Source: Candidatus Dormiibacterota bacterium (lineage in GTDB: Bacteria; Chloroflexota; Dormibacteria; Aeolococcales; Aeolococcaceae). Taken from it: DNA of 64,000 bases. A program made the translations under genes and the position numbers. The notes under the pieces are model-generated. The model saw nothing but the letters and a program-made list of their open reading frames with translations. It was not told the DNA's origin and made no database searches. The first letter of the stretch is position 1; every line of letters begins with the position of its first letter. Positions 14,151 to 47,884 of the stretch are shown piece after piece. The stretch spans positions 636 to 64,635 of the forward strand of contig JBEPVD010000011.1 of NCBI GenBank assembly GCA_041691155.1, in the 5' to 3' direction.

Positions 14151-14220
14151 TAGCAAAGCTTATCTCGCCCATGCATACCATGCATTAGACAGCAGCAAGC
14201 CGACCGCCTATCGTCGGGCC
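14150..14220. promoter_or_regulatory. Divergent cbbR/prk promoter region with LysR boxes
   Basis: TTA-N7-TTA at 14150-14162; ATGCAT-ACC-ATGCAT at 14171-14185; TAGACA-N17-TATCGT (14186-14214) ending 6 nt before the prk ATG. Confidence 0.7.
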
Positions 14221-16703
<2,483 letters not shown>

Positions 16704-16714
16704 GGACAGACGAT

Positions 16715-17137
16715 ATGCATGTCACACAGGGAACCTTTTCCTACCTGCCTCCACTCACTGAAACGCAGGTACGCGCCCAGGTGCAATACGCGCTCGACAA
16801 CGGGTGGGCGCTTTCGGTGGAGTTCACCGATGACCCGCACCCCCGCAACTTCCTGTGGGAAATGTGGGGGCTGCCGATGTTCGACGTACGCGATCCGGCG
16901 GCCATCCTGCTCGAGGTCGGTCGCTGCCGCACGGCGTATCCGGCTCGGTACGTCCGCATCAACGCCTATGACCGGACGCTCGGCCGTCAGACCACCGCGT
17001 TGAGCTTCATCGTTCAGCGACCGGTCTCAGAGAAGGGTTTCCGGCTGGAGCGGCAGGAGGGTGCCGATCGCCAGGTGCGCTACGCACTCCACCCCTACGC
17101 GCTCGACCTCCCGCCCGGAGAACGCTACGAGCGCTGA
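16715..17137 (+). CDS. cbbS: RuBisCO small subunit, red-type
   Basis: [39 protein letters not shown] with red-type C-terminal extension. Confidence 0.96.
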
Positions 17138-18157
17138 GTGATGGCACGGGAACCGCACGTTCCGTTCGGCATGCCCCGGCCGTCGACCGGCGGCGTCGCC
17201 ACCGTGGGGGACGGCCTCCCCACTGAAGCGGATAACGTGCCGCCGGAGCCGCCGGCTCTCGGTGGCGACGGTGTCGACCTCGAGGCCGAGGCGCGCGCAT
17301 CCGGCGTTTTCGACGTCATCGCAGAACTGGACCGCGAGCTGGTCGGGCTGGTTCCGGTCAAGACGCGAATTCGAGAGATCGCGGCACTCCTGGTCGTTGA
17401 CTCCGCGCGCCGACGCGCTGGACTGGAGGCGGAGCGCCCCAACCTGCACATGTGCTTCACGGGCAGCCCGGGGACCGGCAAGACCACGGTCGCGCTCCGC
17501 ATGGCCGCGGTGCTGCACAGCCTCGGCTACCTCGCCAAAGGCCATCTGGTCGCCGTGACCCGTGACGAGCTGGTCGGTCAGTACATCGGGCACACGGCGC
17601 CGAAAACGCGCGAGGTCCTCAAACGCGCGATGGGTGGGGTTCTCTTCATCGACGAGGCGTATTACCTCCATCGCCAGGAGAACGAGCGCGACTATGGTCA
17701 GGAGGCAATCGAGATCCTGTTGCAGGTCATGGAGAATCAACGCGCCGATGTGGTCGTCATCCTCGCCGGGTACCGCGACCGCATGGACCAGTTCTTCAAC
17801 AGCAACCCCGGCATGGGATCACGCGTCGCGCACCACATCGACTTCCCCGACTACGACCTCGATGCGTTGACGGCGATCGCGCGCATCATGCTCGATCGTC
17901 AGCGATATGCCTTCTCGCCGGCCGCCGAAGGTGCCTTCCGTGAGCTGCTGACCAGGCGCATGACCCAGCCTCGCTTCGCCAACGCCCGGAGCGTTCGCAA
18001 CGCCCTGGAGCGCGCCCGGTTGCGGCAGGCCAACCGTCTCGTTTCAGACAACGGGCGCCTCGTGACGCGAGACGATCTCATGCGCATCGAGGCCGCTGAC
18101 ATACTCAAGAGCCGCTGGTTCACCGACCCACCGAAGGCCGTTGACGACGCCGGCTGA
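17138..18157 (+). CDS. cbbX: RuBisCO activase CbbX
   Basis: [50 protein letters not shown]. Confidence 0.95.
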
Positions 18158-20439: not shown

Positions 20440-21585
20440 TTAGCAGATGCGGGGCAGTGGATCTCCGATCAGCATGTCCACGACGCGAGTGCCGCCGAAT
20501 CCGGTGTGGATGAAGACCATTCCCTCCGGCTCGGCGAGCACCTCGCCGATGACCACCGCTTCCGTCCCTTCCGGACGCGAGCGCATCAGATCGACGGCGC
20601 GGGTCGCATCCTGCTTCGCGACGATGGCCACGAGCTTGCCCTCGTTGGCGATGTACAGCGGGTCAATGCCGAGGATCTCCGCCACGCCACGGACCGCGTC
20701 GTGGATTGGTAGCGATGCTTCGTCGATCGCCACAGCCACGCCGGCCGCCTGAGCGATCTCGTTGAGCACGGTCGCAACCCCGCCGCGCGTCGCGTCGCGC
20801 ATGAAGTGGACGTCGACGCCGCTGTCGAGCAGTGCGGCGGTGAGTCCGTTGAGGGGCATCGTGTCGCTCCGCAGCGAGTCGGCTTCGAGATCGACGTCAC
20901 CACGAGCGAGCATGACCGTGGCGCCGTGATCGCCCATGGCGCCGCTCAGGATGACCACGTCACCGGGAACGATTCGCGGGATTGCGATGCGATTGGGGAG
21001 CGCGACCACACCGACGCCCGTGGTCGTGATGAACAGCTGATCGGCCTTGCCGCGAGGGACGACCTTGGTGTCGCCGGTGACGACGCTGACGCCTGCGCGA
21101 TCCGCGGCGCGTCGCATCGACTCGACCACCCTGCGCAGCACAGCCACGTCAAGCCCTTCCTCGAGGATGAACGCCGCGGAAATCCCCATCGGGGTCGCGC
21201 CGCCGACGGCGAGGTCGTTGATCGTGCCGTTGACCGCGAGTTCGCCGATGTCGCCGCCCGGGAAAAAGAGTGGGCTGACGACAAACGAATCGGTGGTCAC
21301 CGCGAGTCCGATGTGGTCCACCCCGGGGATCGCCAGCACTGCCTGATCACCCAGCTGGTCGAGGACGGGATTGCTGAGGATGTCACCGAAGAGCGCGGTG
21401 ACGAGCGTGTGGCTGGCTTTGCCGCCGGCGCCGTGGCTCATCGTGATCGCGTCCTCGCGCATCGACGGCTTGCGCTTCCGAATCTCGGCGATGCGTTCGA
21501 GCACCCGCTGCTCGGGGTCGGCGATGCGCGCGGAGGCCGCCCTGATCGCGGCGCCGCTTCCGGGCTCAACCATCGTGTCGGTCAT
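20440..21585 (-). CDS. hypE: Hydrogenase maturation carbamoyl dehydratase HypE
   Basis: SHGAGG, TDSFVVSPLFFPGGDIG, RDATRGG, ANEGK, C-terminal PRIC. Confidence 0.96.
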   Translation of the reverse strand: MTDTMVEPGSGAAIRAASARIADPEQRVLERIAEIRKRKPSMREDAITMSHGAGGKASHTLVTALFGDILSNPVLDQLGDQAVLAIPGVDHIGLAVTTDSFVVSPLFFPGGDIGELAVNGTINDLAVGGATPMGISAAFILEEGLDVAVLRRVVESMRRAADRAGVSVVTGDTKVVPRGKADQLFITTTGVGVVALPNRIAIPRIVPGDVVILSGAMGDHGATVMLARGDVDLEADSLRSDTMPLNGLTAALLDSGVDVHFMRDATRGGVATVLNEIAQAAGVAVAIDEASLPIHDAVRGVAEILGIDPLYIANEGKLVAIVAKQDATRAVDLMRSRPEGTEAVVIGEVLAEPEGMVFIHTGFGGTRVVDMLIGDPLPRIC

Positions 21586-22790
21586 CGCGCCCGCACCGCA
21601 AGCGGGACGAGGTCGTGCTCGACACCATTGCCGTTGCTGTGACCGTTGCCGTTGGGCCGGTCGCCGGACGCGAGCACTCGCTCGCGCTCGCGGGCGCGCG
21701 AGTACCTGCCAAAGTTGTAGTACGCAGCGCAGGCGCCTTCCGACGAAACCATGCAGGTGCCGATCGGTGTCTCCGGCGTGCAGGCGGTGCCGAACACCTT
21801 GCACTCCCACGGCTTGAGCACCCCTTTGAGCACCTCACCGCACTGACATGCCTTGGGATCGGCGACGCGGACGCCGGGCACGGAAAACACCTTCTCGGCA
21901 TCGAAGTCGGCGTACTCGTCCTGCAGTTCGAGCGCGCTCTGGCTGATGAACCCGAGTCCGCGCCATTCGAAATGCGAACGCAACTTGAAGACGCGCGCCA
22001 GCACTTCGAGCGCCTTGGGATTGCCGTCGTCATGGACGACGCGCCGATACTGGTTCTCGACTTCGCAACGGCCCTCGAGCACTTGCTGAATGATCATGTG
22101 CACGCCCTGCAGGATGTCGAGTGGCTCGAAACCGACGACGACGACCGGCTTGTTGTACGTGCGTGTCACGAACTCGAAGGGTCGAATCCCCACAACCGTC
22201 GACACGTGTCCTGGCCCGAGAAACCCGTCGAGCTGCAGGTCAGGCGAATCGAGGATGGCCTTCATGGGCGGAATGATCGTGACGTGGTTGCAGAAGACGA
22301 AGAGATTGCGCAGCCCTTCCGCCTTGGCTCGCATCAGTGTCAGCGCCGTGGACGGCGCAGTGGTCTCGAACCCGATCGCGTAGAACACGACCTTCCGGTC
22401 CGGATTCTCCTGGGCGATCTTCAAGGCGTCGAGCGGCGAGTACACCATGCGCACATCGGCACCGGCGGCCTTGGCGTCGAGCAGACTGCCCTTGCTGCCG
22501 GGCACGCGCATGAGGTCGCCGAAGCACGTGAAGATCACGCCGGGCTCGTGTGCGACGGCGATCCCGTCGTCAAGCCGTCCCATCGGAATAACGCAGACGG
22601 GACATCCCGGCCCGTGAACGAGCTCCACGTTGCTCGGCAGGAGATCCTCGATGCCGTACTTGAAGATGGTATGCGTGTGGCCGCCACACACCTCCATGAT
22701 CTTCCAGTGCTTGTCGCCGGACTCGGCGGTGATGCGCGCCGCCAGCGCACGCGCCAGGTCGGCGTCCCGGAACTCGTCAGCGAATTTCAT
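21582..22790 (-). CDS. hypD: Hydrogenase maturation protein HypD
   Basis: MEVCGGHTH, GPGCPVC, GFETTAP, PGHVS, CMVSSEGAC. Confidence 0.97.
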   Translation of the reverse strand: MKFADEFRDADLARALAARITAESGDKHWKIMEVCGGHTHTIFKYGIEDLLPSNVELVHGPGCPVCVIPMGRLDDGIAVAHEPGVIFTCFGDLMRVPGSKGSLLDAKAAGADVRMVYSPLDALKIAQENPDRKVVFYAIGFETTAPSTALTLMRAKAEGLRNLFVFCNHVTIIPPMKAILDSPDLQLDGFLGPGHVSTVVGIRPFEFVTRTYNKPVVVVGFEPLDILQGVHMIIQQVLEGRCEVENQYRRVVHDDGNPKALEVLARVFKLRSHFEWRGLGFISQSALELQDEYADFDAEKVFSVPGVRVADPKACQCGEVLKGVLKPWECKVFGTACTPETPIGTCMVSSEGACAAYYNFGRYSRARERERVLASGDRPNGNGHSNGNGVEHDLVPLAVRAR

Positions 22791-24641: not shown

Positions 24642-27008
24642 TCAGGCAGCCTCCTCCGCTCGGGACGCGGCAACCAGCGCCTGTCCGAGGCTGAGCCCAC
24701 CGTCGTTGGCGGGCACCTCGTGATTTGAGAAAACCTGCAGATCCCGCTCGCCGAGCAACTGTTCGACACGTGCCAGCAGCAGGGCATTTTGAAAGACGCC
24801 ACCGCTCAGCGCAACACGAGCCACAGCAAGCTCCGCCGCGAGTCGCATGCACGCCGCGGCGATCGCATGCGCCACGCTCTCGTGAAACAGTGCGGCCAGC
24901 TCGCCGGCCGGTCTGCCTCGGTCGCGCTCCTGCGCGAGCCGCGCGACCAGACCAACCGTGTCGAGCACGAGCGGCGATCCCTGGAGACCGACATCCAGTC
25001 GCTGCCCAGTCGCGCCGTCGCCACCGGTTGCCGCCAGCGCCTCGAGACGCATCGCAGCCTCGGCCTCGAAGCTCGACACCTGCGCGATCCCCAGAAGGCT
25101 TGCGACCGCGTCGAAAAGACGGCCGGCGCTGGTGCTGACGGGCGCTGCCGACGGGGAGAGCGCGAGCCTCGAGACCAGCCGCCACGCACGGTCAGTCGGC
25201 GCGTCAACGGAGTCGCGGATCCAGCGAGGCGGGGTGTCGCGCAGCGCGCCGGAGGCGGCCAGGTACGCGATCGCCATGCGCCACCCCTCACGAGCGCACG
25301 CGTCCCCTCCGGGCTGGCGAACGGCCGCGATGTGACCGACTCGTCGGTACGAGCGCTCGTCGCAGAGCAGAAATTCGCCGCCCCAGATGGACTGATCGGG
25401 TCCGATGCCGACACCGTCGAATGCCACGCCCAGCACGCTCCCGCGAAGGTCGTGCTCGGCCAGCACGCTCGCGATGTGCGCGTGATGGTGTTGGACGCGC
25501 ACCGGTCGCGCACCGCCGTCCCAGTACGCCTCGGCCAAACGTGTCGACGCGTAGTCCGGATGCAGGTCAGCAGCCACGACATCGGGGTCCGCGCGGAACA
25601 GGTGCAGGTAGGTGGCGAGCGCCTCGCCGTGATGGGCGAGCGTCTGCGGGCTGTCCAGGTCGCCGACGTGCGGGCCGGTGAACGCGTTGCCATCTTTGAT
25701 GATGCAGAAGGTGTTCTTGAGGTGTGCACCGAGGGCGAGCACGGTGCTCTTGCCCACCGGAACGCGTACCGGCAACGGAGAAAACCCACGGGCGCGCCGG
25801 ATCATGCGCTGGGTGCCGCCCACCACGCGCAGCACCGAGTCGTCGTAGCGCGCGTGGATGTCGCGGTCGTGCAGCAGGAACTTGTCAGCAATCTGACCGA
25901 GACGCGCGACCGCCTCGTCGTTGTCGCGAGCAATGGGCTCCTCGCTCCGGTTGCCGCTCGTCATCACCAAGGGTGCACCGACCGCGCGCAACAGGAGGTG
26001 GTGCATCGGCGTGTATGGGAGCATCACGCCGAGTTCGTGCAGTCCAGGCGCAACCGAATCCGCGATAGCGCTCTCCACCTGGTCCGCCCGGAGCCGCAAG
26101 AGCACGATCGGTCGCGTCGAGCCCTCGAGCAGTGCCGCCTCCTCGCCCGACAGGTGGCAGAGGGCGCGCACGTCGTCCAGGTTCGGGAACATGACTGCGA
26201 ACGGCTTGGCGGGGCGGCACTTCCGCGCACGCAAACGCAATACCGTCGCTTCGTCTTCGGCGCTGCATGAGAGCTGGAATCCCCCCAAGCCTTTGAGCGC
26301 GATCACTTCGCCGCGCGCGAGCGCTGCGGCCGTGCCGGCGATCGGCTCGTCAGCGAGAGCCGTGCCCCGTGCGTCGGCAAGCCAGAGGCGCGGCCCGCAG
26401 TCCGGGCAGGCGTTCGGCTGCGCATGAAACCTGCGATCGGCAGGGTCGTCGTATTCCCGCCGGCAGGCCGCACACATCGTGAAGTGCCGCATGGTGGTGA
26501 ACCGCCGGTCGTAGGGGACGTCCTCGATGATCGTGAACCGCGGTCCGCAGTCGGTGCAGTTCGTGAACGGATAGCCGAAGCGGCGATTCTCCGGCGACAT
26601 GATGTCGGCGAGGCAGTCGGGGCACGTTGCCGCATCGGGCGCGATCGGTTGGTACTCGCCGTCGACGGCGCGACTCTCCACGATCCGAAATTGGGTATCG
26701 CCCACCGAATCCATCGCCCGCAACTCCACCGTGTCGATGCGTGCCAGCCGAGGCGCCTCGTCACGCAGCGCGCGGGCAAAGACATCGACCACGACGGCCG
26801 CACCCTCGACCTCGATGATCACGGCCCCGGACGTGTTGCATACGAAGCCGCGCAGCCCGAGCCGGTGTGCCAGGTTCCACACGAAGGGTCGGAAACCAAC
26901 GCCTTGCACGACACCGCGCACGGTGAATCGCCACCGGGACACGCCACCGCTTTCGGGCGGTGTCGTGACCGGCAGTGTGACCGCCAGCGGCGAGGTGGCA
27001 AGGCTCAC
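24642..27008 (-). CDS. hypF: Carbamoyltransferase HypF
   Basis: VQGVGFRP, CPDC/CTDC/CAAC/CPDC zinc fingers, QHHHAH, DGGLSLGQ. Confidence 0.96.
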   Translation of the reverse strand: MSLATSPLAVTLPVTTPPESGGVSRWRFTVRGVVQGVGFRPFVWNLAHRLGLRGFVCNTSGAVIIEVEGAAVVVDVFARALRDEAPRLARIDTVELRAMDSVGDTQFRIVESRAVDGEYQPIAPDAATCPDCLADIMSPENRRFGYPFTNCTDCGPRFTIIEDVPYDRRFTTMRHFTMCAACRREYDDPADRRFHAQPNACPDCGPRLWLADARGTALADEPIAGTAAALARGEVIALKGLGGFQLSCSAEDEATVLRLRARKCRPAKPFAVMFPNLDDVRALCHLSGEEAALLEGSTRPIVLLRLRADQVESAIADSVAPGLHELGVMLPYTPMHHLLLRAVGAPLVMTSGNRSEEPIARDNDEAVARLGQIADKFLLHDRDIHARYDDSVLRVVGGTQRMIRRARGFSPLPVRVPVGKSTVLALGAHLKNTFCIIKDGNAFTGPHVGDLDSPQTLAHHGEALATYLHLFRADPDVVAADLHPDYASTRLAEAYWDGGARPVRVQHHHAHIASVLAEHDLRGSVLGVAFDGVGIGPDQSIWGGEFLLCDERSYRRVGHIAAVRQPGGDACAREGWRMAIAYLAASGALRDTPPRWIRDSVDAPTDRAWRLVSRLALSPSAAPVSTSAGRLFDAVASLLGIAQVSSFEAEAAMRLEALAATGGDGATGQRLDVGLQGSPLVLDTVGLVARLAQERDRGRPAGELAALFHESVAHAIAAACMRLAAELAVARVALSGGVFQNALLLARVEQLLGERDLQVFSNHEVPANDGGLSLGQALVAASRAEEAA

Positions 27009-27012
27009 GACA

Positions 27013-27207
27013 TCACGCGGCCCGCAACTGGTCCGCCGTGTTGCTGAATCGCTCTTCGAGGAATCCCGTCGCCAGACTGACCACCATCTGCACGTCCTCG
27101 CGGGCGGCAAATTTCTTGGCAGTGTCGACGAGCTCGTCGAAGCGTTCCTTGCCGGCGCGCGTGCCCAGCACGTAGCCGATACTGAAGATCACGAGTTTCT
27201 CAAGCAT
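27013..27207 (-). CDS. Small protein with N-terminal hydrophobic segment
   Basis: 64 aa MLEKLVIFSIGYVLGTRAGKERFDEL; in operon; purine-rich RBS. Confidence 0.7.
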   Translation of the reverse strand: MLEKLVIFSIGYVLGTRAGKERFDELVDTAKKFAAREDVQMVVSLATGFLEERFSNTADQLRAA

Positions 27208-32375: not shown

Positions 32376-34163
32376 TCATGGTTGCGTGCCGAAGTTCGGC
32401 GAGTGCCGAGTCTCCAGCACTTTGCCGTTGCCGAGATACATGTGCACGCCGCATGGCAGACACGGATCAAAGCTGCGCACCGCGCGCATGATGTCGATGC
32501 CCTTGAAGTTGTCAGGCCCGTTCTCTTCAAAGATCGGCGTGTTCTGCACCGAGTCTTCGTACGGTCCCGGCGTTCCGTACATGTCGCGAGGCGTGGCGTT
32601 CCACGGCGTCGGCGGGTACGGATGGTAGTTGGCGATCTTCCCGTCACGAATCACGACGTGGTGGGAGAGCACACCGCGAACCGCTTCATGGAAGCCACAG
32701 CCGATCGCCTCGTCAGGCACGGTGAATGGCGTGAAGGTGTCGGTGCGTCCAGCGTTGAGCTCAGCGAAGGCCTTCTCGATGAAGTGGAGCGCAGCCGCTG
32801 CCGCGTACGCCTGGAAGTACGTCCGGGCCCGGTCGCGCTCGATCGCGTTGCTCCACTTCGGCACGTGCCACTCGAACTCAACCTCGGGCTTCGAGGCGGT
32901 CTTGGGAAGGTAGATCTTGGTGCTGTGACCGGTCGCCTTCACGTAGCCGATGTCGACGACGCCGGCGAGTGAGGTCGCGAGCAGCCGGGCGAAGGCGCCG
33001 CCACCGGTATCCATCGCCAGGTGCTGGCCCTCGTGGAGGTAGCGCGGGCACATCACCCAGCTGTAGTTCTTGTCGAAATCGCGCTTCCCCGGCTTGGGGA
33101 TGGTTGTCTGGTTCCACGGATGCCGCTTGTCGATCGGGAATCCGAGCGGATCCTTCTCGACGAACACTTCACCGTCGTCGACCCAGTCCTCGTAGAACGA
33201 GTGTCCGAGCAGGATTCGGATGTTGCGGTTGATCTCGACCAGGTCAGTGGTGACCAGCTTGCCGTCCACAACGACACCGGGGGTCACGAACATCGACCGT
33301 CCCCAGTTGGTCATGTGACGGTAGGTGTAGTCGCACTCGTCGGGATCGTTGAACGAGCCCCAGCAGACCGTGTCCATACGGCGACGACCGACTTCCTCGT
33401 ACCCCGGAAGAGCCTCGTAGAAGAAGTCGAAGATGTCGTCGTGCAGTGGCACGACCTTCTTCATGAACTCAACGTAGCGCATCAGGCGAACGAGGTAGTC
33501 CGAGAAGAGCTGGACGGTCGGCACGGTGCCGACGCCGCCGGGATACAACGTCGATGGATGGACGTGGCGTCCCTCCATCAGGCAGAACATCTCGCGCGTG
33601 TAGCGGCTGACGTGCAAGGTCTCGCGGTAGAACTCGCCCGTGAACGGGTTGAGCGCCCGCATGATGTCGGCGATCGTCCGATAGCCATGGTCGGCCGCAT
33701 GCGGCGAGGGAGTGTTCTCCGCTTTCGCGAGGACACTCGGGTTGGTCTCTTTCACCATCTGCTCGCAGAAGTCGACCATGAGCAGGTTGTCCTGGAAGAT
33801 GTTGTGGTCGAACATGTACTCGGCGGCCTCGCCGAGGTTGACGATCCACTCCGCCATTGCCGGCGGCCGGATGCCGAACGCCATGTTCTGCGCGTAGGTT
33901 GCGCAGGTCGCGTGGTTGTCACCGCAAATGCCGCAGATGCGGCTGGTGATGAAGTGCGCGTCGCGAGGGTCCTTGCCCTTCATGAAGATGCTGTAGCCAC
34001 GGAAGATCGACGAGGTGCTCCGGCAGTCCGCGACGACGCGGTTCGCGAAGTCGATCTTCGTGAAGATGCCGAGGCTGCCGACGATCCTGGTGATGGGATC
34101 CCAGGAGACGTCAACCAGGGTCGGGTCCTTGGTCCGGGTGGCGTCTTTCTCAACCACAGTCAT
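32376..34163 (-). CDS. hhyL: Group 1h [NiFe]-hydrogenase large subunit
   Basis: L1 ITSRICGICGDNH; L2 SFDPCLPCGVH; WDPITRIVG. Confidence 0.95.
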   Translation of the reverse strand: MTVVEKDATRTKDPTLVDVSWDPITRIVGSLGIFTKIDFANRVVADCRSTSSIFRGYSIFMKGKDPRDAHFITSRICGICGDNHATCATYAQNMAFGIRPPAMAEWIVNLGEAAEYMFDHNIFQDNLLMVDFCEQMVKETNPSVLAKAENTPSPHAADHGYRTIADIMRALNPFTGEFYRETLHVSRYTREMFCLMEGRHVHPSTLYPGGVGTVPTVQLFSDYLVRLMRYVEFMKKVVPLHDDIFDFFYEALPGYEEVGRRRMDTVCWGSFNDPDECDYTYRHMTNWGRSMFVTPGVVVDGKLVTTDLVEINRNIRILLGHSFYEDWVDDGEVFVEKDPLGFPIDKRHPWNQTTIPKPGKRDFDKNYSWVMCPRYLHEGQHLAMDTGGGAFARLLATSLAGVVDIGYVKATGHSTKIYLPKTASKPEVEFEWHVPKWSNAIERDRARTYFQAYAAAAALHFIEKAFAELNAGRTDTFTPFTVPDEAIGCGFHEAVRGVLSHHVVIRDGKIANYHPYPPTPWNATPRDMYGTPGPYEDSVQNTPIFEENGPDNFKGIDIMRAVRSFDPCLPCGVHMYLGNGKVLETRHSPNFGTQP

Positions 34164-34177
34164 GGGTCTGTCTCTCC

Positions 34178-35242
34178 TCAGTACGTGGTCGGCCGGTAGC
34201 CGGTGGTCAGCTCTGGCCGGGTGTGACGCCACTTCGGCTCTTTGTTGACGGTCGTGTTGGTGACCTTGCGCAGCGCACGGATGGCAGTGCCGTAGACACC
34301 GATCACGCCGGTCGAAAGATGCGCGCCGGGCGGCTCGTCCATGAACGGCATGAACTTGTCCGGGAAGCCGGGCATCGTGCAGCCGATGCAGATGCCGCCG
34401 ACGTTTGGACAGCCGCCGATGCCGGCCATCCATCCGCGCTTGGGCACGTTGCAGTTGACGACCGGTCCCCAGCAGCCGAGCTTCACGAGGCAGCGAGGGG
34501 AGTTGTAGTCCGCGGCGAAATCGCCCTGCTCGTAGGACGCGGCACGGTCACACCCGTCGTGGACCGTGTCCCCGAAGAGCCACGTGGGACGCAACTGGTC
34601 ATCCAGCGGGATCACCGGCGCGAGTCCGGCGACCATGTAGAGCAGATAGAGCACCGTCTCCATGAAGTTGTCGGGTTGCACAGGGCAGCCCGGTACGTTG
34701 ACGATCGGAAGGCCCGCCTTCGACTTCCAGTCCCAGCCGAGGTAGTCGGCCAGGCCCATAGCGCCGGTGGGGTTCCCCTGCATCGCATGGATGCCGCCGT
34801 ACGTCGCGCAAGTGCCGCAGGCGACGACAGCGAGCGCCTTGGGCGCGAGGCGGTCGATCCATTCGCAGGTGGTGATCGGTTGCCCGGTCGCCGCGTCCGT
34901 GCCGACGGCGGCCCAGTAACCTTCCTTCTTGATGGTTTCGTTCGGAATCGAGCCTTCGATGACGAGCACGAAGGGATCCAGCTCGCCGTTCGCGGCCGCG
35001 TGCCAGGACTTGATGAACTCCTCGCCGTTCTCATACGCGAGGACGGGGTTGTACAGATGCACTTTGGGGAGGCCCGGTATCGCACCGAGCAGCACATCCT
35101 CGATGCTGGGCTGCGTGGCTGCGGTGATCGACACCGAGTCACCGTCGCAGCCGAGTCCGGCGGTCACCCACACGATGTGGACATCCGGGACGGGCGACTC
35201 CCGCTGGGTTTTCCGCCCGTAGGGCACCGTGTCTGTGGCCAT
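34178..35242 (-). CDS. hhyS: Group 1h [NiFe]-hydrogenase small subunit
   Basis: GLGCDGDS (Cys/Asp proximal ligands), GCPVQP, HDGCDR, CIGCTMPGFPD; no Tat signal. Confidence 0.95.
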   Translation of the reverse strand: MATDTVPYGRKTQRESPVPDVHIVWVTAGLGCDGDSVSITAATQPSIEDVLLGAIPGLPKVHLYNPVLAYENGEEFIKSWHAAANGELDPFVLVIEGSIPNETIKKEGYWAAVGTDAATGQPITTCEWIDRLAPKALAVVACGTCATYGGIHAMQGNPTGAMGLADYLGWDWKSKAGLPIVNVPGCPVQPDNFMETVLYLLYMVAGLAPVIPLDDQLRPTWLFGDTVHDGCDRAASYEQGDFAADYNSPRCLVKLGCWGPVVNCNVPKRGWMAGIGGCPNVGGICIGCTMPGFPDKFMPFMDEPPGAHLSTGVIGVYGTAIRALRKVTNTTVNKEPKWRHTRPELTTGYRPTTY

Positions 35243-40251: not shown

Positions 40252-40252
<1 letters not shown>

Positions 40253-43200
40253 CAGCTCACCAGTTCGAGTTGGGCGCGGAGCGCGCGGCGGTATTCCTCG
40301 GGCATGACCTTCACGAACAGCGCGCGAGACTGATTCCAGGTGCGGAGCAGCCGCGAGGCAACGTCACTCCCGGTGAGCGCTGCGTGCCGCACCAGCAGAT
40401 CAAGCACCGCGCCCTGATCCTCGACACCCAACGGCTCGAGCGCAACCGTCGCGCCGTTGCAGCGTGACGACAGGCCGCCATCCTCGTCGAGCACGTAGGC
40501 GATGCCGCCACTCATGCCAGCGGCGAAGTTCCGTCCAGTGCGACCGAGGACGACGACCGTCCCGCCGGTCATGTACTCGCATCCATGATCGCCGACCCCT
40601 TCCACCACCGCGAGCGCGCCCGAGTTGCGAACGGCAAAACGCTCGCCGGCCACGCCGCGGACGAATGCCTCGCCCGACGTCGCTCCGTAGAGCGCCACGT
40701 TGCCGATGATGATGTTCTCCTCGGCGCGTCGAAGGGCGGCGTGGGGTGGAAGAATGACCAGCCTCCCGCCCGAAAGCCCTTTACCCACATAGTCATTCGC
40801 CTCACCACGCAAGGTGAGTGTGACCCCCGATGCGAGCCACGCGCCGAACGACTGACCGGCGGCGCCGTCGAGTTCGATGCCGATGGTGCCATCCGGAAGC
40901 CCAGCTGCCCCGTAGCGTCTCGCGATCTCGCCGCTCAACATCGCGCCCACAGAGCGATGCACGTTGCGCACCTTCACTCGTATGCGCGCCGACCGTTGCG
41001 TCTCCAGCGCGTCGGCACACTGGACCAGCAAATCCTGATCGAGCATCTCGCTGAGATCCGCGACCTGAAAAGCGCTGTGACGCCGTTCGGCCGGCGACGT
41101 CACCGAGGGAACCGTCAGCAGGCTGCGCAGGTCAAGGCCGCGCGCCTTCCAGTGATCGACGGCGGGGCGCGCCTCGATCACATCGACTCGACCGATCATG
41201 TCCTCGAAGCGACGGAATCCCAGACGTGCCATCCAGCGACGAACATCCTCCGCAAGAAAGAGCATGAACGCCACAACGTGTTCGGGACGGCCGGCGAAGC
41301 GTGCGCGGAGCACGGGGTCCTGCGTGGCGATGCCGACCGGACACGTGTTGAGATGGCAGACGCGCATCATCACGCAGCCTGCGGCAATCAGCGGGGCTGT
41401 GGCAAACGCGAACTCGTCAGCACCCAGCAGCGCGCCGATGACCACGTCGCGTCCGGTCTTCATCTGACCGTCCGCCTGCAGCGTCACCCGGCTGCGCAGC
41501 CGCTGGCGGATCAACACCTGCTGCGCTTCGGCGAGACCGAGCTCCCAGGGCACACCGGCGTGCTTGATGGCTGTGAGCGGCGAGGCACCGGTGCCACCTT
41601 CATACCCCGCGATGACGATGTGATCCGCGCGCGCTTTCGCGACGCCCGCAGCCACGGTGCCAACGCCGGATTCCGCCACCAGCTTGACGCTGATTCGCGC
41701 CCGCGGGTTCACGCTGCGGAGGTCCCAGATGAGCTGTGCAAGGTCCTCGATGGAATAGATGTCGTGATGCGGCGGCGGCGAGATGAGCCCGACGCCGGGT
41801 GTCGAGTGGCGAAGTCTCGCGATCGCCTCGTCCACCTTGAATCCCGGGAGTTGCCCTCCCTCGCCCGGTTTCGCCCCCTGGGCGATCTTGATCTGCAGTT
41901 CGTCAGCATTCACGAGGTAGTGGGCGGTGACGCCGAAACGCGCTGACGCCACCTGCTTGATCGCGCTCCGCCGCCAGTCGCCGTTTGCGTCGGGCTCGAA
42001 CCGCGAGGGGTCCTCGCCACCCTCACCCGTGTTGGAACGTGCACCCAGGCGATTCATGGCGATCGCGAGCAGCTCGTGCACTTCCTTGCCCAAGGAGCCG
42101 TGCGACATGCCGCCGGTCGAGAAGCGTCGGACGATATTGAGTGCCGGCTCAACCTCATCGAGCGGCACGCGCACCGCAGAGTCGCGAAGCGCGAACAGTC
42201 CCCGAAGGTTCTTCAAGCGCTGCGACTCGTCGTCAGCCAGCGCGACGTACTCACGGAAGGCGGCCTCGTCACCCGATTTGACCGCATGCTGGAGTGCGCC
42301 GATGACCTCGGGATGCCACTGATGGAGCTCGCCGTCTCGTCGCCATCGATACTCGCCGCGGTCCTCGAGCGTCGGTGGTGTGATGCTCACGTCGGGGAAG
42401 GCACGCCGATGACGAGCGAGTGCCTCGGCGGCGATCACATCGATCCCGATACCCCCGATGCGCGACGGCGTATTCGGAAAGAAGCGGTCAATGACGCTGT
42501 GATCAATTCCCAGGCATTCGAAGATCTGCGCGCCGCAATACGACTCGATCGTGGAGATGCCCATGCGTGCAATGGTTTTGCGCAACCCTTTGACGAGCGC
42601 ATGGACGTACAGCTCCTCGGCACGCGCCGCGTCAACGGTCGGCGGGAGCAGTTCGCGCCGCGCGAGGTCAGCCACGGTCTCGAACGCGAGATAGGGGTTC
42701 ACCGCCTCCGCGCCATACCCGACCAGCAAGGCGAGGTGCATCACCTCGCGCACCTCTCCGGTTTCCACGACCAGTCCAACACCGGTGCGTGTCTGTTCCC
42801 GAACCAGATGGTGGTGCACTGCGGCGGTCGCGAGGAGCGAGGGAATCGGCACGTGGGAAGCGTCGATGTGCCGGTCGCTCAGGATGAGCACCGTCGCGCC
42901 GGCGGCAATCTGTTCCGACGCGATGCGGCAGATGCGGTCGATCCCCGCGAGGAGACCCGCCGCACCAGCGTCGCGATGGAACACCATCGAAATCGTCGCA
43001 GCCGGGAACTGGCGTTGCGTCACGTGCCGGAGCTTCTCGAGATCGATGTTGGTGAGCACCGGATGACGCAGCGCGAGACGTTTCGCTTGCGCAGGGCCCT
43101 GCTCCAACAGGTTGCCCCCCGCCCCAAGCGTGGTCACGAGCGACATCACCGCTTGCTCACGGATGGGGTCGATCGGCGGGTTCGTGACCTGTGCGAAGAG

Positions 43201-44745
43201 TTGCTTGAAGTAATTGAAGAGCGGCAGCGGTCGCTCGCTGAGGACCGCGAGCGGCGTGTCGTTGCCCATCGAACCGACGGCTTCCTCGCCGGTGTGGCCC
43301 ATTGGCGTGATGAGCATTTCGACGTCCTCGACGCTGTACCCGAAGGCCTGCTGTCGCACCAGGAGCGTTCCCCGATCGGACACCGGGACGTGGTCCGGGG
43401 GATCGAGCTCATCGAGATGCACCGTTCCCGCGCTGATCCACTCGCGATACGGATGCGTGGCGGAGAGACCGCTCTTGACGTCCTGATCATCGAGAATCCG
43501 TCCCGCAGCCGTGTCGACGAGGAGCAGCCTGCCCGGCTCGAGGCGCCACTTCCGCGTGATCTGTTCCTCCGGAAGGTCCAGCACGCCGGCTTCGGACGCC
43601 ATGACCACGAGGCCATCCTCCGTCGTGAGGTATCGAGCCGGGCGCAGACCGTTGCGGTCGAGGGTTGCGCCGATGACCAGTCCGTCGGTGAAAGCGATCG
43701 CTGCCGGCCCGTCCCACGGCTCGAGCAGCGAACTGTGAAACTCGTAGAACGCGCGGCGATCCGCGTCCATGAGCGTGTTCTCATGCCACGCCTCGGGAAT
43801 CATCATCATCACCGCGTGCTCGATCGACCGGCCGGTCATGGTGAGCAGCTCGAGCGCATTGTCAAACTGAGACGAGTCCGAACCAGACTCGTCGAGGACC
43901 GGCACCAGCTTGGCGATGTCATCGCCAAAGTGCGGACTGCGGAATTTGGATTGGCGCGCGCGCATCCAGTTGACGTTGCCCCGGAGCGTGTTGATCTCGC
44001 CGTTGTGCGCCGACATGCGGAAGGGCTGCGCGAGATCCCAGCGCGGCAGCACGTTGGTGGAGAAACGGGCATGCACCAGCGCCAGCGACGACATCAACCG
44101 TGGATCGCGGAGGTCGGGATAAAAGCCGGCCAATTGCGCCGCGGTGAGCATGCCCTTGTAGACGAGGGTCCGCGCGGAGAGCGACGCGAAGTGAAACTGA
44201 TCGCGCCCGATGCCCGCTGCAACAGCGGCACGCTCGATGACCCTTCGCAGCACCAGCAGACGGCTCTCCAGGACGGCACCGTCGAGCCCGATCGCGGCAA
44301 CAAACAGCTGGCGGATCGCGGGCAGCGTCGACCGAGCGCTCAGTCCGAGCGCGTCGCCGGCCACCGGGACGTCACGCCATCCGAGGAGGCGCATGCCCTC
44401 AGCGCGGCATGCCTGCAACGTGATGGCCTCGCAGCGAGCGCGGTCCTCCGGGTCCTGGGGCATCATCGCCATCCCGACCCCGTACGCGCCTGGGGCGGGG
44501 AGCGAGATGCCCGACGCATCGCGAAAGAACGGGTCGGGGAGCTGGATCAGGATGCCCGCGCCATCCCCGCTATCGGGCTCGGCTCCGGATGCACCGCGAT
44601 GACCCAGGTTCACGAGCGCCTCGATGCCCGATTCCACCACCGCGTGGCTTGCCCCACCGGCAATGCGCGCGACAAAGGCGACGCCGCACGCATCGTGTTC
44701 AGCGGCAGACTCGAATAGACCTCGTCGCGGGTGCAGGTCGCTCAT
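40252..44745 (-). CDS. gltB: Glutamate synthase large subunit
   Basis: [41 protein letters not shown]. Confidence 0.97.
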
Positions 44746-44834
44746 CTGTTGGCCGATACGAGGACATCCTGACAGGCGCGGCCAATCGATTCAATCCACA
44801 AACCTCACAAGAGTCTGTGCTAGGGTTTGTGCAA

Positions 44835-44897
44835 ATGGTCGCAACTGCGCGTCGATACTTTGGCCCGCCAGCCGTAAGGCTGCCGGGGGTTCTCTAA
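44835..44897 (+). CDS. Putative 20-aa leader peptide MVATARRYFGPPAVRLPGVL
   Basis: ATG 8 nt after TGC-TAGGGT extended -10; tandem Tyr-Phe codons; overlaps the structured leader. Confidence 0.4.
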   Translation: MVATARRYFGPPAVRLPGVL

Positions 44898-44991
44898 CCC
44901 GACGCGCAGTTTCTTCCAGGGCTGGTTCATCAAAGATGGGTCAGCCCCGGATCCCGTGAGGTGGCCCATCACCACACGGAGGTTCCATACA
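44835..44991 (+). promoter_or_regulatory. Structured 5' leader, putative attenuator
   Basis: 12-bp stem 44843-54/44900-11 with inner GUAA hairpin; 13-bp hairpin 44919-44947; RBS-overlapping hairpin 44954-44979; alternative 9-bp pairing 44935-43/44962-70. Confidence 0.6.
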
Positions 44992-46080
44992 GTGACCATC
45001 GAGCCGCTGCTCCCGAGCGCGACCCACGACCGTGCGACTCGCCGGGTGCGCATCGGTAACGTCGACATCGGCGGTGCCGGCGTCCCCGTCCTCGCCGGCC
45101 CCTGCGCGGTCGAGATCGATTACGTCGAACATGCGGTTGCCGCGCAACAAGCCGGTGCCTCCGTGCTGCGCGGATGCGTGCTCAAGCCTCGGACTCGACC
45201 CGGGTCGTTCCAGGGGCTGGGGATTGACGGGCTTCCCCTCCTCGATGAGGCGAAGCGGCGTACCGGGCTCCCGGTCATCGCCGAGCCGCTCTCGGTCACG
45301 GACATCGAGATGCTCCGCAACCACGTCGACGCGCTGATGATTGGTGCCCGGTCGATGCACAACACACCACTGCTTCGCGCGGCCGGCCAGAGCGGGATGA
45401 CCGTGATCGTCAAGCGCGGGATGTCCGCCACGTACGACGAATGGCTCGCCGCTGCGGAATACGTCACCGGCGAGGGAAACCGCCAGGTCATCCTGTGTGA
45501 GCGCGGGATTCGCACCTTCGAGACCGCGACTCGCAACACCCTCGACCTCAGCGCCATCGCGGTACTGCGGGACATGACCGACATGCCGATCGCGGTCGAT
45601 CCGAGCCACGCGGCAGGGAACGCCCGATGGGTCCCTTCGCTGGCCGTCGCCGCCGTCGCTGCCGGTGCCGATGCGCTCTTGATCGAGTGTCACCCGCACC
45701 CCGCACGGTCCGTTTGCGACGCGGACCAGGCGATTACGCCGCGAGTCCTCGCTCGAATCGTGGAGGCGGCAGCAGCCCTCTGCGCGATGTCGCGCCCCGC
45801 GGAAATGGACTCGCTCACCGGATGCCGCGCTGCGATCGACACCATCGACGACGCGGTGTTCCAGATGCTGGAATACCGCGCGGCAATCGTCGAGGCCGCG
45901 CAGCAGCACAAGGTCTCAACCGCCGTCCCCGGGCGCGATCCCGAACGCGAGCAGGCGATCGTGGACCGGCTGTCGCAGCGGGCGCCACGCCTCGGCGGTC
46001 AGCGGGTCGACCGCCTCGTCCGCGCGATCATCGACGAGTGCCTCGATGCGGTTCCCGAGACGCGTGAAGCCGTGGCGTGA
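44992..46080 (+). CDS. Type I-beta DAHP synthase fused to C-terminal chorismate mutase
   Basis: AGPCAVE, KPRT, IGARSMHN, KRG, LCERGIRTFE, DPSHAAG; C-terminal RAAIDTIDD...RDPERE; GTG 44992 with GGAGG. Confidence 0.9.
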   Translation: MTIEPLLPSATHDRATRRVRIGNVDIGGAGVPVLAGPCAVEIDYVEHAVAAQQAGASVLRGCVLKPRTRPGSFQGLGIDGLPLLDEAKRRTGLPVIAEPLSVTDIEMLRNHVDALMIGARSMHNTPLLRAAGQSGMTVIVKRGMSATYDEWLAAAEYVTGEGNRQVILCERGIRTFETATRNTLDLSAIAVLRDMTDMPIAVDPSHAAGNARWVPSLAVAAVAAGADALLIECHPHPARSVCDADQAITPRVLARIVEAAAALCAMSRPAEMDSLTGCRAAIDTIDDAVFQMLEYRAAIVEAAQQHKVSTAVPGRDPEREQAIVDRLSQRAPRLGGQRVDRLVRAIIDECLDAVPETREAVA

Positions 46081-46150
46081 ACCGGAGCCCGGGGAGCTGC
46101 GGCCCAACCCCGTCAGTTGCAGTGGGGTAACGTGGGCGCGCCACTAGGAG

Positions 46151-46663
46151 GTGTCTGCGTTGGACGGTGACCAGCTTCGATCCATCCAAGCCCCGCTGAA
46201 AGACCGCTACCGGGCGGAGCCCGCAACCGCGCTCGTCACGCTGCGTGCCGCGGGTGAGTTGGGGACCGAAGCCATCTCCTGCTCTGTGCAGACCGGACGC
46301 GCTCTGGTCGAGGCCGGCCTCCACGAGTTCAGCGGTGGCGACGGCACGCTGGCCTGCTCTGGAGACATGCTGCTGCAAGCGTTGGTCGCATGCGCCGGCG
46401 TGACACTCGAATCGGTCGCGACCAATCGCGGCATCGCCGTATCGGGATGGGTGCGCGCCGAAGGCGACCTCGACTTCCGAGGCACCATGGGCATCAGCCG
46501 CGATGCGCACGTGGGCTTCACCGCTATCAGAGTCATGTTCGACATTCAGAGTGACGCGGACCCTGGCGCCCTCGACGAGCTGCTGGCAGTCACGCAACGG
46601 TACTGCGTGGTCTACCAGACACTCGCGCAGCCACCGGCGCTGACCATGACCCGCCAGCAATGA
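46151..46663 (+). CDS. OsmC-family protein
   Basis: ACSGDMLLQALVACAG, EGDLDFRG, RYCVVYQT. Confidence 0.88.
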   Translation: MSALDGDQLRSIQAPLKDRYRAEPATALVTLRAAGELGTEAISCSVQTGRALVEAGLHEFSGGDGTLACSGDMLLQALVACAGVTLESVATNRGIAVSGWVRAEGDLDFRGTMGISRDAHVGFTAIRVMFDIQSDADPGALDELLAVTQRYCVVYQTLAQPPALTMTRQQ

Positions 46664-46780
46664 CGGTACCCGGCCGCGTGGCGACCACGTTGTGTGATGC
46701 CTCGGAGGCGCGTCCGGCGGGGATGGACGCGCTGACCGACTCCGTCCTCTCCGCCGATCCGAGCGCATGAGCACAGGCCG

Positions 46781-47884
46781 GTGAACGTCGCTGACGGGTT
46801 CCAGATTGGATTCGGCGCGGTCCTCGTTCTGATCACGATGTATGACGTCTTCCAGTCTGTGGTGATGCCGCGCCCCGCGGTCGGGCGATTGCGGCTCAGC
46901 TTCACGCTCGTGCGTGGCGGGTGGCGCGCGTGGCGAAAGATCGCCGAGCGCCCCCACAAGCTGCAGACGCGCGAGGCCGCACTTGCGGCATTCGGACCGC
47001 TCGCTGTCATCGGGCTGCTGGTGCTCTGGGGGCTGGCGTTCATCCTCGGCTTCACGCTGCTGTTCAGCGGTCTCCACGCCGGGCTGAGACCGCAGCCCGA
47101 CTCCTTCGGGACGACACTGTTCTTCTCGGCGGGCCGGATGCTGGCGTTTCCGGTTGGCGGCATCGAGCCAGTGGGTGTTGCCACCCGCATCCTGGCGGGC
47201 ATCGAAGCTGCGAGTGGGTTCGGGCTGTTTGCCCTGGTGATCAGCCTGCTGTTCTCGTTGTTCCAGTCATTCCAACGTCGCGAGATGTCGGTGATCGCGC
47301 TCGACGCCCTGGCCGGCGCACCTCCGTCGGGGGTCCAGATCCTCGAGAGCTGCGCGAAGGACGACATGTCGGAGGAGCTTGCGACCACCTTCGACGAGTG
47401 GCGGATGTGGACGGTTGATGTCCTTGAGAGTCATCTTTCATATCCCTTGCTCTTCTACTTCCGATCCAGTCACGACAACGAGGCCTGGGCAAACTCTTTC
47501 GGCGCGGTGATGGACGCGGCGACGCTGGTGCTCACCACCGTCGATGGTGGCCCCACGGGTCACGCCAGGCTGATGCACAAGGTAGGAGCGCACTTCGTCG
47601 CTGACATGCGGCAGTTCCTCGGGTATCCGGAGGAGTCGCTCACCGGGGTCGAGCGCTCGGAATTCGCGGAGGCATGTGGGCGGCTCCGCCAGACGGGGTA
47701 TCGCATGCTCGACGAGGAGACGGCGTGGGAGGCGTTCGGCCGGATGCGCAGCTCATACGCGCCCTTTCTCAACCGGATCACCAAGGGTCTCAGCGTCCCT
47801 CCGGCGGCCTGGATCGGGGATCGCTCCTACCTGCCGCATCGCGAACGAAAGTCGCGCGCGCGTCTTCCGGAGCCGGGCTCGTGA
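46781..47884 (+). CDS. Potassium-channel-family-like membrane protein with degenerate filter
   Basis: TM-pore-TM layout, FQRRE, ESHLSYPLLFYFRS; filter position reads AFPVGG. Confidence 0.7.
   Translation: MNVADGFQIGFGAVLVLITMYDVFQSVVMPRPAVGRLRLSFTLVRGGWRAWRKIAERPHKLQTREAALAAFGPLAVIGLLVLWGLAFILGFTLLFSGLHAGLRPQPDSFGTTLFFSAGRMLAFPVGGIEPVGVATRILAGIEAASGFGLFALVISLLFSLFQSFQRREMSVIALDALAGAPPSGVQILESCAKDDMSEELATTFDEWRMWTVDVLESHLSYPLLFYFRSSHDNEAWANSFGAVMDAATLVLTTVDGGPTGHARLMHKVGAHFVADMRQFLGYPEESLTGVERSEFAEACGRLRQTGYRMLDEETAWEAFGRMRSSYAPFLNRITKGLSVPPAAWIGDRSYLPHRERKSRARLPEPGS

Follow-up and report, generated by a model that had tools for sequence, protein, structure and literature searches.

Comparison With Described Systems

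In Corynebacterium glutamicum the DAHP synthase gene aroF is preceded by aroR, an F-Y-F leader peptide that is described as acting through ribosome stalling (PMC11802643, PMC4046766, PMC7356990), and the account drawn on here reports attenuation of transcription, with a response to Phe but not to Tyr (PMC11802643). Leaderless polycysteine open reading frames (ORFs) of mycobacteria (the Ms5788A class, or 'Cys ribulon') are described as sites where stalled ribosomes block a duplex that sequesters the ribosome-binding site (RBS), as shown experimentally (10.1101/834739). In Deinococcus deserti, 14 leaderless leader peptides with a 5′-terminal AUG (transcription start site at 0 or −1) are predicted before amino acid biosynthesis and tRNA synthetase genes (PMC4007540). 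A 2005 survey reported no RNA element upstream of Actinobacterial Phe/Tyr genes (PMC1262725). Our literature search found no report of such elements in the Dormibacterota. Herein we describe a leader in a stretch of 64,000 nucleotides (nt) from a Candidatus Dormibacterota genome (GenBank assembly GCA_041691155.1, contig JBEPVD010000011.1, positions 636 to 64,635; this whole stretch is referred to as the window), located upstream of a gene for a DAHP synthase with a fused chorismate mutase. We propose that it is, with reasonable probability, an attenuator of the ribosome-mediated leader-peptide type, which monitors the charging of tRNA-Tyr and tRNA-Phe and controls this enzyme of the Candidatus Dormibacterota. 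As DAHP synthase catalyzes the first step of aromatic amino acid synthesis, its production would be switched on upon a shortage of Tyr or Phe.

The resemblance to aroR-aroF is drawn at the level of function, in that a DAHP synthase gene would be controlled by a small ORF ahead of it in which Phe and Tyr codons are neighbors, but the enzyme type and the phylum differ, and the Dormibacterota element lacks a U-tract terminator and has a predicted RBS-sequestering hairpin instead. With the mycobacterial cysteine leaders, as they are presented in the source cited above, it has in common a putatively leaderless sensory ORF as the first cistron, at least two consecutive end-product codons and a predicted RBS-sequestering duplex that a stalled ribosome would relieve. 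However, Cys is sensed there and Tyr/Phe would be sensed here, the phylum is another, the evidence there is experimental whereas here it is predictive, and a single duplex is blocked directly there whereas here a relay of three helices would connect the pause site with an RBS ~120 nt downstream. The D. deserti leader peptides likewise begin at a 5′-terminal AUG upstream of amino acid biosynthesis genes, but they are predicted transcription attenuators, and the part of that report considered here names no aromatic or DAHP synthase example. In the ermCL and cat leaders, as summarized in the sections consulted of 10.1101/834739, a ribosome arrested in the leader ORF also remodels hairpins and frees a downstream Shine-Dalgarno (SD) sequence, but the arrest depends on an antibiotic and the nascent peptide rather than on tRNA charging, and the genes confer resistance rather than being biosynthetic. 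The element described here combines the signal of aroR with the mycobacterial mode of action and with a helix relay that pairs backwards; the principle is known and the form is new.

Conservation of the Leader Peptide

Homologues of the enzyme are numerous (60–95% identity in a protein homologue search), and a single scan of species-representative genomes gave 45 loci, with 38 from metagenome-assembled genomes (MAGs) of the Candidatus Dormibacterota type (60–92% protein identity, a few titled otherwise) and seven from Firmicutes (~45%). The leader set on which the counts below are based (n = 35) comprises the window and the 34 Dormibacterota loci with a complete upstream region; loci L003, L012 and L026, in which the 5′ end is cut, and L029, which is without the gene start, were left out. 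MAG titles that read Saccharimonadales (L002, L025), Acidiferrales (L003, L033) or Chloroflexi (L028, L037) belong to loci with proteins 63–82% identical to that of the window, much as in the MAGs titled Dormibacterota, and these odd titles probably arise from taxonomic labels that differ between pipelines. The leader was found once per Dormibacterota locus and in none of the seven Firmicutes loci, and no second copy is present in the window or the loci, the next best matches in the window having E ≥ 0.006 on the minus strand.

All 35 leaders have an extended −10 box (TGnTAnnnT) 8–9 nt upstream of an ATG, and information content rises above background only from this box onward (TG at −17/−16, TA at −14/−13, T at −9). 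Further upstream, alignment between clades fails and conservation is at background level, and a search of the window for a −35 consensus found none. Since only 8–9 nt separate the −10 box from the ATG, there is no room for a SD sequence before the leader ORF, from which we infer that the ORF is leaderless and that the 5′ end of the transcript lies at the ATG or 1–2 nt before it.

The leader ORF consists of 20–26 codons, with the ATG, the frame and the stop kept in 35/35, and hence a short ORF that is translatable by sequence is present in the 5′ leader throughout. Its stop codon lies 2–9 nt before an invariant CGCAG and 90–97 nt before the enzyme start codon, so that a terminating ribosome would cover region 2, the downstream arm of the first long helix (Table 1). 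Adjacent Tyr/Phe codons are present in every leader, in agreement with the expectation of an earlier sequence-only reading of this DNA that they would be conserved among orthologs. They begin at codon 8, or at codon 9 in L005 and L034, where the only two insertions ahead of them are found, each of 3 nt and thus frame-preserving. The motif is YF in 30 leaders, FY in three, YFYFY in one (L033) and FYFYFY in one (L036), and it is encoded by TAC (37 codons), TAT (2), TTT (33) and TTC (5), so synonymous variants occur. Region 1, the upstream arm of the same helix, ends 1 nt before the Tyr codon, and the spacer from the last Tyr/Phe codon to the motif GCCRGCC is exactly 5 nt in all 35, including the leaders with expanded repeats. 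In other words, a cluster of end-product codons precedes the gene of a biosynthetic enzyme, DAHP synthase-chorismate mutase, and by comparison of sequences the leaders show what is classically taken to mark a regulatory leader peptide, here one that would start at the 5′ end of the transcript.

Conservation of the peptide beyond Tyr/Phe coincides with the arms of RNA helices, whereas codons 2–7 vary freely in amino acid (V/A/T/H/Q/R). This bears on the idea that the ORF encodes a functional micropeptide, or that the structure merely stabilizes the mRNA, with no amino acid being sensed. The fair conservation of a GPPAVRLPG / ARPA..LPG segment would fit such a peptide, but that segment coincides with the RNA arms a and a′, codons 2–7 are free to change while Tyr/Phe are kept through swaps and repeats, and the alternative folds described below are conserved as well. 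We consider this explanation very improbable.

A Trp codon (UGG) is found in the leader ORF 6–7 codons past Tyr/Phe in three of the 35 leaders (L030, L032, L033), where it falls in the P1a loop or arm a′. It is probably incidental, because a ribosome modeled as pausing there would cover both a and a′ and favor the OFF fold.

Two Mutually Exclusive Folds

The 173-nt leader of the window has a minimum free energy (MFE) of −87.9 kcal/mol, compared with −59.7 ± 4.2 kcal/mol for 200 shuffles (z = −6.7), none of which was equally stable. The minus strand folds equally well (z = −6.6) and hence fold energy alone cannot fix the strand. The plus strand is instead assigned on the basis of the promoter, the ORF, the SD and the orientation of the gene; the sequence-only reading had reached the same strand from the G-U pairs and a GNRA loop, which is a weak argument. 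Nor does the GNRA loop hold as a functional motif, since GUAA occurs in only 27/35 leaders and GUAC, GGAA, GGAU, AGAU, UUCU, ACAC or UUUG elsewhere. The other elements of that reading, the extended −10 box, the 20-codon ORF with TAC-TTT, the 12-base pair (bp) stem with the GUAA hairpin and the 13-bp hairpin, are all where it had placed them, and the third hairpin that it saw over GGAGG is also present, with an extent of 44949–44984 in the MFE fold.

Two folds of the leader are conserved (Table 1). The OFF fold consists of P1, P1a, P1b, H2 and H3, and the ON fold consists of one long hairpin, in which a-loop-a′ pairs with region 2-linker-A, together with the helix B:C; P1b is shared, capping the junction of the OFF fold as well as the long hairpin of the ON fold. 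The pairing of GATGGGTCA (44935–44943) with TGGCCCATC (44962–44970) that is possible in the window, and which had been proposed as a mutually exclusive 9-bp alternative, is in fact the best conserved helix of the whole leader. What had been missed is the relay, P-alt plus a:A, that would join the ribosome to this pairing.

Table 1. Features of the leader and of its flanking genes. Positions are those of the window except for the tRNA genes, which are given by locus; leader positions in brackets (nt) are counted from the ATG and are converted to window coordinates by adding 44834.
Feature	Position	Strand	Remarks
Extended −10 box TGnTAnnnT, TGCTAGGGT	44818–44826	+	Seen in sequence, conserved
Leader ORF, 20 codons plus TAA, MVATARRYFGPPAVRLPGVL	44835–44897	+	Putatively leaderless; ATG at 44835, stop at 44895–44897
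Regulatory Tyr-Phe codons 8–9	44856–44861	+	TAC 44856–44858, TTT 44859–44861
Region 1, 5′ arm of P1, AACTGCGCGTCG	44843–44854 (nt 9–20)	+	Perfect 12-bp helix with 44900–44911; lies under the modeled ribosome during a Tyr/Phe pause
Region 2, 3′ arm of P1, CGACGCGCAGTT	44900–44911 (nt 66–77)	+	Pairs with region 1; GCAG and linker also in P-alt
P-alt	44877–44885 with 44903–44912	+	ON fold; P1a loop and a′ with region 2 GCAG and linker
P1a hairpin, CCCG-C-CAGCC GUAA GGCUG-C-CGGG	44864–44887	+	OFF fold; core CAGCC-GUAA-GGCUG 44869–44882
P1a arm a, GCCAGCC	44867–44873 (nt 33–39)	+	
P1a arm a′, GGCUGCC	44878–44884 (nt 44–50)	+	
P1b, small hairpin	44888–44899	+	Contains the leader stop TAA; in MFE fold
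H2 hairpin, 13 bp	44919–44947	+	Three G-U pairs; strand A 44919–44931 (nt 85–97), strand B 44935–44947 (nt 101–113)
a:A helix	44920–44926	+	ON fold; arm a with GGCUGGU of strand A
Strand C, UGGCCCAUC	44962–44970	+	With B (44935–44943, GAUGGGUCA) in ON; inner stem and loop of H3 in OFF
H3, RBS-sequestering hairpin	44949–44984 (nt 115–150)	+	Core 44954–44979; MFE fold; covers SD
SD sequence GGAGG	44978–44982 (nt 144–148)	+	Inside H3
Glutamate synthase large-subunit gene	40252–44745	−	Upstream neighbor in the window
Regulated gene, DAHP synthase (DAHP_synth_1) with fused C-terminal chorismate mutase (CM_2)	44992–46080	+	GTG start
tRNA-Ser(tga)	L030 2170–2259, L037 2202–2291, L034 1363–1452, L032 42–131	−	Upstream of leader-aroA
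tRNA-Ser(gct)	L030 5519–5611, L037 5009–5101, L032 4097–4189	+	Downstream of leader-aroA

Covariance models were built for both folds (R1 for OFF, R2 for ON), and the ON fold was traced by duplex searches in each sequence and by constrained folds. In the structure-fitted alignment 91.7% of the cells in OFF helices are paired, compared with 28–43% when partners are slid, and 14 pairs are changed on both sides compared with 4–6 in the slid controls; in a structure-blind MAFFT alignment the corresponding values are 89.5% and 31–46%. The ON helices are paired in 90.9% of cells in a neutral alignment (29–44% slid) and in 94.0% in the fitted alignment (24–45% slid). Both sets of stems are therefore kept across the orthologous leaders. 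Column counts are too low for H2 and a:A, since in the MAFFT and Infernal alignments alike six or seven divergent leaders are shifted by one column, and the duplexes of the individual sequences show both helices intact.

Among the individual helices, B:C is paired in 99% of cells of the 35 sequences, with both one-sided and two-sided changes, and it is the pairing chosen by RNAalifold for the consensus. P1 is kept in divergent loci with shifted or compensated arms, P1a is paired in 97% of cells with a′ invariant in 35/35, and H2 is paired in 96%. Three of the four pairs of P1b are changed on both sides, as are three of the four outer pairs of H3, in which the helix is kept. In H2 a U-A pair is replaced by C-G in L033 and L036, and in the same two loci an A to G change in arm a matches a U to C change in strand A. 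Although neither the P1a loop nor the linker behind region 2 is paired in the OFF fold, the two co-vary between clades as expected for P-alt (GUAAGG/UC-G-UUAC, GGAAGG/UCUUCC, GGAUGG/CCGUCC, UGGG/UCCA), and one P-alt pair is changed from U-A to G-C in four sequences. When cognate arms were compared with permuted arms, in a test that ignores relatedness, none of 2000 permutations was as good for P-alt, for P1 or for H3, and 7/2000 were as good for a:A. Seven divergent leaders score higher with R2 than with R1, although R2 has fewer pairs. The sensor, that is, the predicted ORF with its Tyr/Phe codons, and both sets of helices are thus demonstrated at the level of the sequence comparison.

The strands GGCUGCC, CGCGCAG, GGCUGG, GAUGGGUC and GNCCCAUC are near-invariant, with CGCAG present in 35/35 leaders and CGCGCAG in 34/35. 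This is to be expected, because each strand has two partners (a/a′/A, A/B/C and B/C/D). The same conservation might also suggest that the H2-H3 domain acts as a riboswitch, or as a binding site for a protein or a tRNA, in response to a signal of the aromatic pathway, alone or beside the leader peptide, with the ORF being secondary. The very high sequence conservation of H2, the H3 loop and CGCGCAG, a pseudoknot-like fold that B:C and outer H3 could make, and the failure of the domain to match any known Rfam family are all compatible with this. However, the conserved bases are accounted for by the two partners of each strand, there is no T-box match, and the start, the frame, the Tyr/Phe codons with their expansions to 5–6 codons, and the 5 nt kept between these codons and arm a would be without purpose in a pure riboswitch. 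We consider such a domain improbable, and the 'unknown riboswitch' that the sequence-only reading offered as an alternative is not needed; the comparative data favor its other proposal, a translational switch that senses Tyr/Phe-tRNA. A dual sensor, in which the Tyr/Phe leader peptide is combined with a pseudoknotted H2-H3 aptamer (B:C plus outer H3) that recognizes uncharged tRNA or a metabolite of the aromatic pathway, a single RBS thereby integrating two signals, is in our judgment a similarly remote prospect.

Two long-range pairings with the start of the enzyme gene were also seen. RNAalifold predicts 4 bp between the GUCG that ends region 1 (44851–44854) and UGAC/UGGU at the aroA start (44993–44996), and this pairing, kept in 33/35, could either add to the occlusion of the start codon or be due to chance. 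An 8-bp pairing of the leader 5′ end, AUGGUCGC, with the aroA start, GUGACCAU, which occurs in the MFE fold of the window, was rejected, as it contains a C-A mismatch in most relatives (AUGGCC...) and has no match in the divergent leaders.

A Proposed Mechanism for the Switch

We propose that transcription begins at the leader ATG or 1–2 nt before it, and that the 20-codon ORF is read as a leaderless mRNA. With no ribosome, or with the ORF read to its stop, the OFF fold would form, with region 1 paired with region 2 (P1), a with a′ (P1a), A with B (H2) and C with D (H3), and H3 would bury the SD of the enzyme gene, or the start codon in some relatives. If Tyr- or Phe-tRNA were scarce, the ribosome would pause at codons 8–9 and cover region 1, and region 2 and the linker, now without their partner, could fold back onto the P1a loop and arm a′ (P-alt), freeing arm a (GCCAGCC). 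The freed arm would capture GGCUGGU in the 5′ arm of H2, such that P-alt and a:A become one long hairpin. Strand B (GAUGGGUCA) would be left free to pair with C (UGGCCCAUC), H3 could not close, the RBS would be open and the enzyme would be made. The ON fold would form during transcription, and it would have to last, or be captured by the 30S subunit, before H2 and H3 take over. The modeling described below is the basis on which we infer the sequence of steps, the trapping in a kinetic sense and an output at the level of translation.

The classical trp and pheA attenuators (trpL, pheL) of Proteobacteria provide an architectural parallel, as they also have regulatory codons just past region 1, a stop placed such that the terminating ribosome covers region 2, and a chain of exclusive helices. 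They differ in that their ORFs are led by a SD and they end in a U-tract terminator, neither of which is found here. Moreover, their 1:2 / 2:3 / 3:4 topology is replaced by one in which region 2 would pair backwards with an upstream hairpin, with five exclusive helices in all.

Modeling of the Paused Ribosome

The ribosome was modeled as an unpaired stretch that begins 17 nt upstream of the A-site codon and ends 6, 9 or 12 nt past the first base of that codon (edges +6, +9 and +12), and the nascent transcript as RNA that ends just after strand C. On this nascent RNA the ON fold is the MFE fold in only 6/35 leaders when no ribosome is present, but in 35/35 when the A site is on the first Tyr/Phe codon (edges +9 and +12). 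One codon past Tyr/Phe, ON is the MFE fold in 1/35 or 0/35, and two codons past in 0/35. Pauses on codons before Tyr/Phe also select ON in this model, and hence the Tyr/Phe codons mark the downstream limit for a pause that selects ON, since earlier pauses work and later ones fail. In silico, therefore, the leader has exclusive folds, one of which is selected by a ribosome beside the regulatory codons.

In the full-length leader the median cost of the ON fold falls from 10.3 kcal/mol to 5.2 (+9), 7.4 (+6) or 9.2 (+12) kcal/mol, and it is lower than in the free RNA in 33/35 (+9), 31/35 (+6) or 25/35 (+12) leaders.

Several results weigh against the proposed attenuator. When the last Tyr/Phe codon occupies the A site, ON is the MFE fold of the nascent RNA in 30/35 leaders with edge +9 and in 1/35 with edge +12, so the outcome there hinges on the footprint that is assumed, and a ribosome on the stop codon also favors ON in 9/35 (+9) or 22/35 (+12), which would be a leak. 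At full length the OFF fold stays better by a median of 5.2 (+9) or 9.2 (+12) kcal/mol, ON comes within 2 kcal/mol of it in only 7/35 (+9) or 1/35 (+12), and the energy gaps of L031 and L036 shift in the wrong direction. When the full leader is folded at equilibrium with the ribosome mask, the accessibility of the SD is unchanged, with an unpaired probability of 0.2–0.4 in all states; relief of the RBS by a stalled ribosome is thus predicted on the nascent transcript only. Since OFF is better at full length, the switch would have to be kinetic, by co-transcriptional trapping or with help from the 30S subunit. Nor is the predicted pairing of the SD unusual for a GC-rich genome, as it is unpaired with a probability of 0.31 here, compared with a median of 0.27 for 10 other sites with a GGAGG and a start in the window. 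The covariation is weakened because most of the 35 leaders are close relatives, a relatedness that the arm-permutation test leaves out of account, and that of the ON helices is modest, with five pairs changed on both sides compared with 0–5 in the slid controls. In addition, leaderless translation is predicted from promoter spacing, and B:C and outer H3 could coexist as a pseudoknot, which is beyond the models of the folding tools.

Occlusion of the Ribosome-Binding Site or Termination as Possible Outputs

The same Tyr/Phe leader peptide could have a transcriptional output, with H2/H3 serving as a terminator without a U-tract or as a pause site, or with the naked leader recruiting Rho, and with a:A and P-alt as the antiterminator. 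This possibility, which we regard as unlikely though not negligible, gains from aroR-aroF, the system nearest in function, for which the account cited reports attenuation of transcription (PMC11802643), and from H2 itself, a GC-rich hairpin of 13–16 bp whose 5′ arm is targeted by arm a. As had been noted from the sequence, there is neither a U-tract nor a T-box. In none of the 35 leaders is H2 or H3 followed by a U-tract, which goes against a transcriptional output, and no terminator-like site, and hence no classical intrinsic terminator, is present within 44835–44991. The lack of a U-tract is not decisive, because the lineage may not rely on U-tracts; sites that consist of a hairpin and a T-run are not enriched in 19 kb of the window (10, compared with 7.5 ± 2.8 in shuffles).

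What a transcriptional output would leave without a role is the strictly conserved B:C helix, and it would also leave unexplained why the 3′ arm of H3 stays on the SD or start codon despite changes of sequence and register. The 5′ arm of H3 is conserved; in most loci it pairs on the 3′ side with the SD, and in L030, L032 and L034 the spacer plus start codon takes the place of the SD. The 3′ arm is thus always on the translation start region, with a shifting target, which points to occlusion of the translation start, as in the translational attenuator that we favor.

A scan with Rfam/Infernal found no family to which the leader might belong, with 0 matches at the gathering threshold in the whole window, only chance-level hits in a permissive scan of 44650–45100 (E = 1.7 and 7.5), and only tRNAs in eight related loci.

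Genomic Context

The leader lies in a 246-nt gap that separates two divergent genes. The product of the downstream gene matches DAHP_synth_1 (E = 1.2e-58) and CM_2 (E = 8.7e-14) in Pfam, and 362-residue homologues of DAHP synthase-chorismate mutase align with it from residue 1. The upstream neighbor varies between clades: it is the glutamate synthase gene in the window, and in the divergent clade it is a tRNA-Ser(tga) gene on the opposite strand, with a tRNA-Ser(gct) gene downstream of the leader-aroA unit. Hence the leader moves with the enzyme gene. The tRNA genes that flank the divergent loci were considered as a link to Tyr/Phe and ruled out, as they encode tRNA-Ser instead.

Downstream of the regulated gene, near an OsmC-like ORF (46151–46663), are two long ORFs without a Pfam match, at 46028–47077 (−) and 46781–47884 (+), one of which runs into the end of the DAHP synthase gene; in DNA so rich in GC, both are probably spurious. 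Elsewhere in the window, genes for phosphoribulokinase, the large and small subunits of RuBisCO and a CbbX-like AAA protein stand in a row (14029–18157, +), and genes for the large subunit of a [NiFe]-hydrogenase, for HypF and for a HypE-type protein that resembles AIR synthase are found at 20440–21810, 24642–27110 and 32376–34433 (−). Hydrogen-driven CO2 fixation has been proposed for the Dormibacterota, and the RuBisCO and hydrogenase genes of the window fit with this.

Implications for the Dormibacterota

Our analysis provides a concrete and testable candidate regulatory RNA for a phylum of soil bacteria that has no cultured member. It would extend the control of DAHP synthase by a Tyr/Phe leader peptide beyond Corynebacterium, and translational attenuation by a leaderless ORF beyond the cysteine genes of mycobacteria. 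The wiring is unusual, in that region 2 would pair backwards into an upstream hairpin and three swaps of helices would reach an RBS ~120 nt from the pause site, and the constant distance of 5 nt from the final sensing codon to the strand that starts the relay amounts to a precise prediction on the leading edge of the ribosome. The R1 and R2 covariance models could be used to annotate the leader in soil metagenomes. We regard the chances as evenly balanced that the element is a purely translational, kinetically trapped amino acid attenuator with a five-helix relay, in which case no cis-regulatory RNA family would have been defined earlier for the Dormibacterota, and the leader might belong to a Tyr/Phe 'ribulon' of this phylum.

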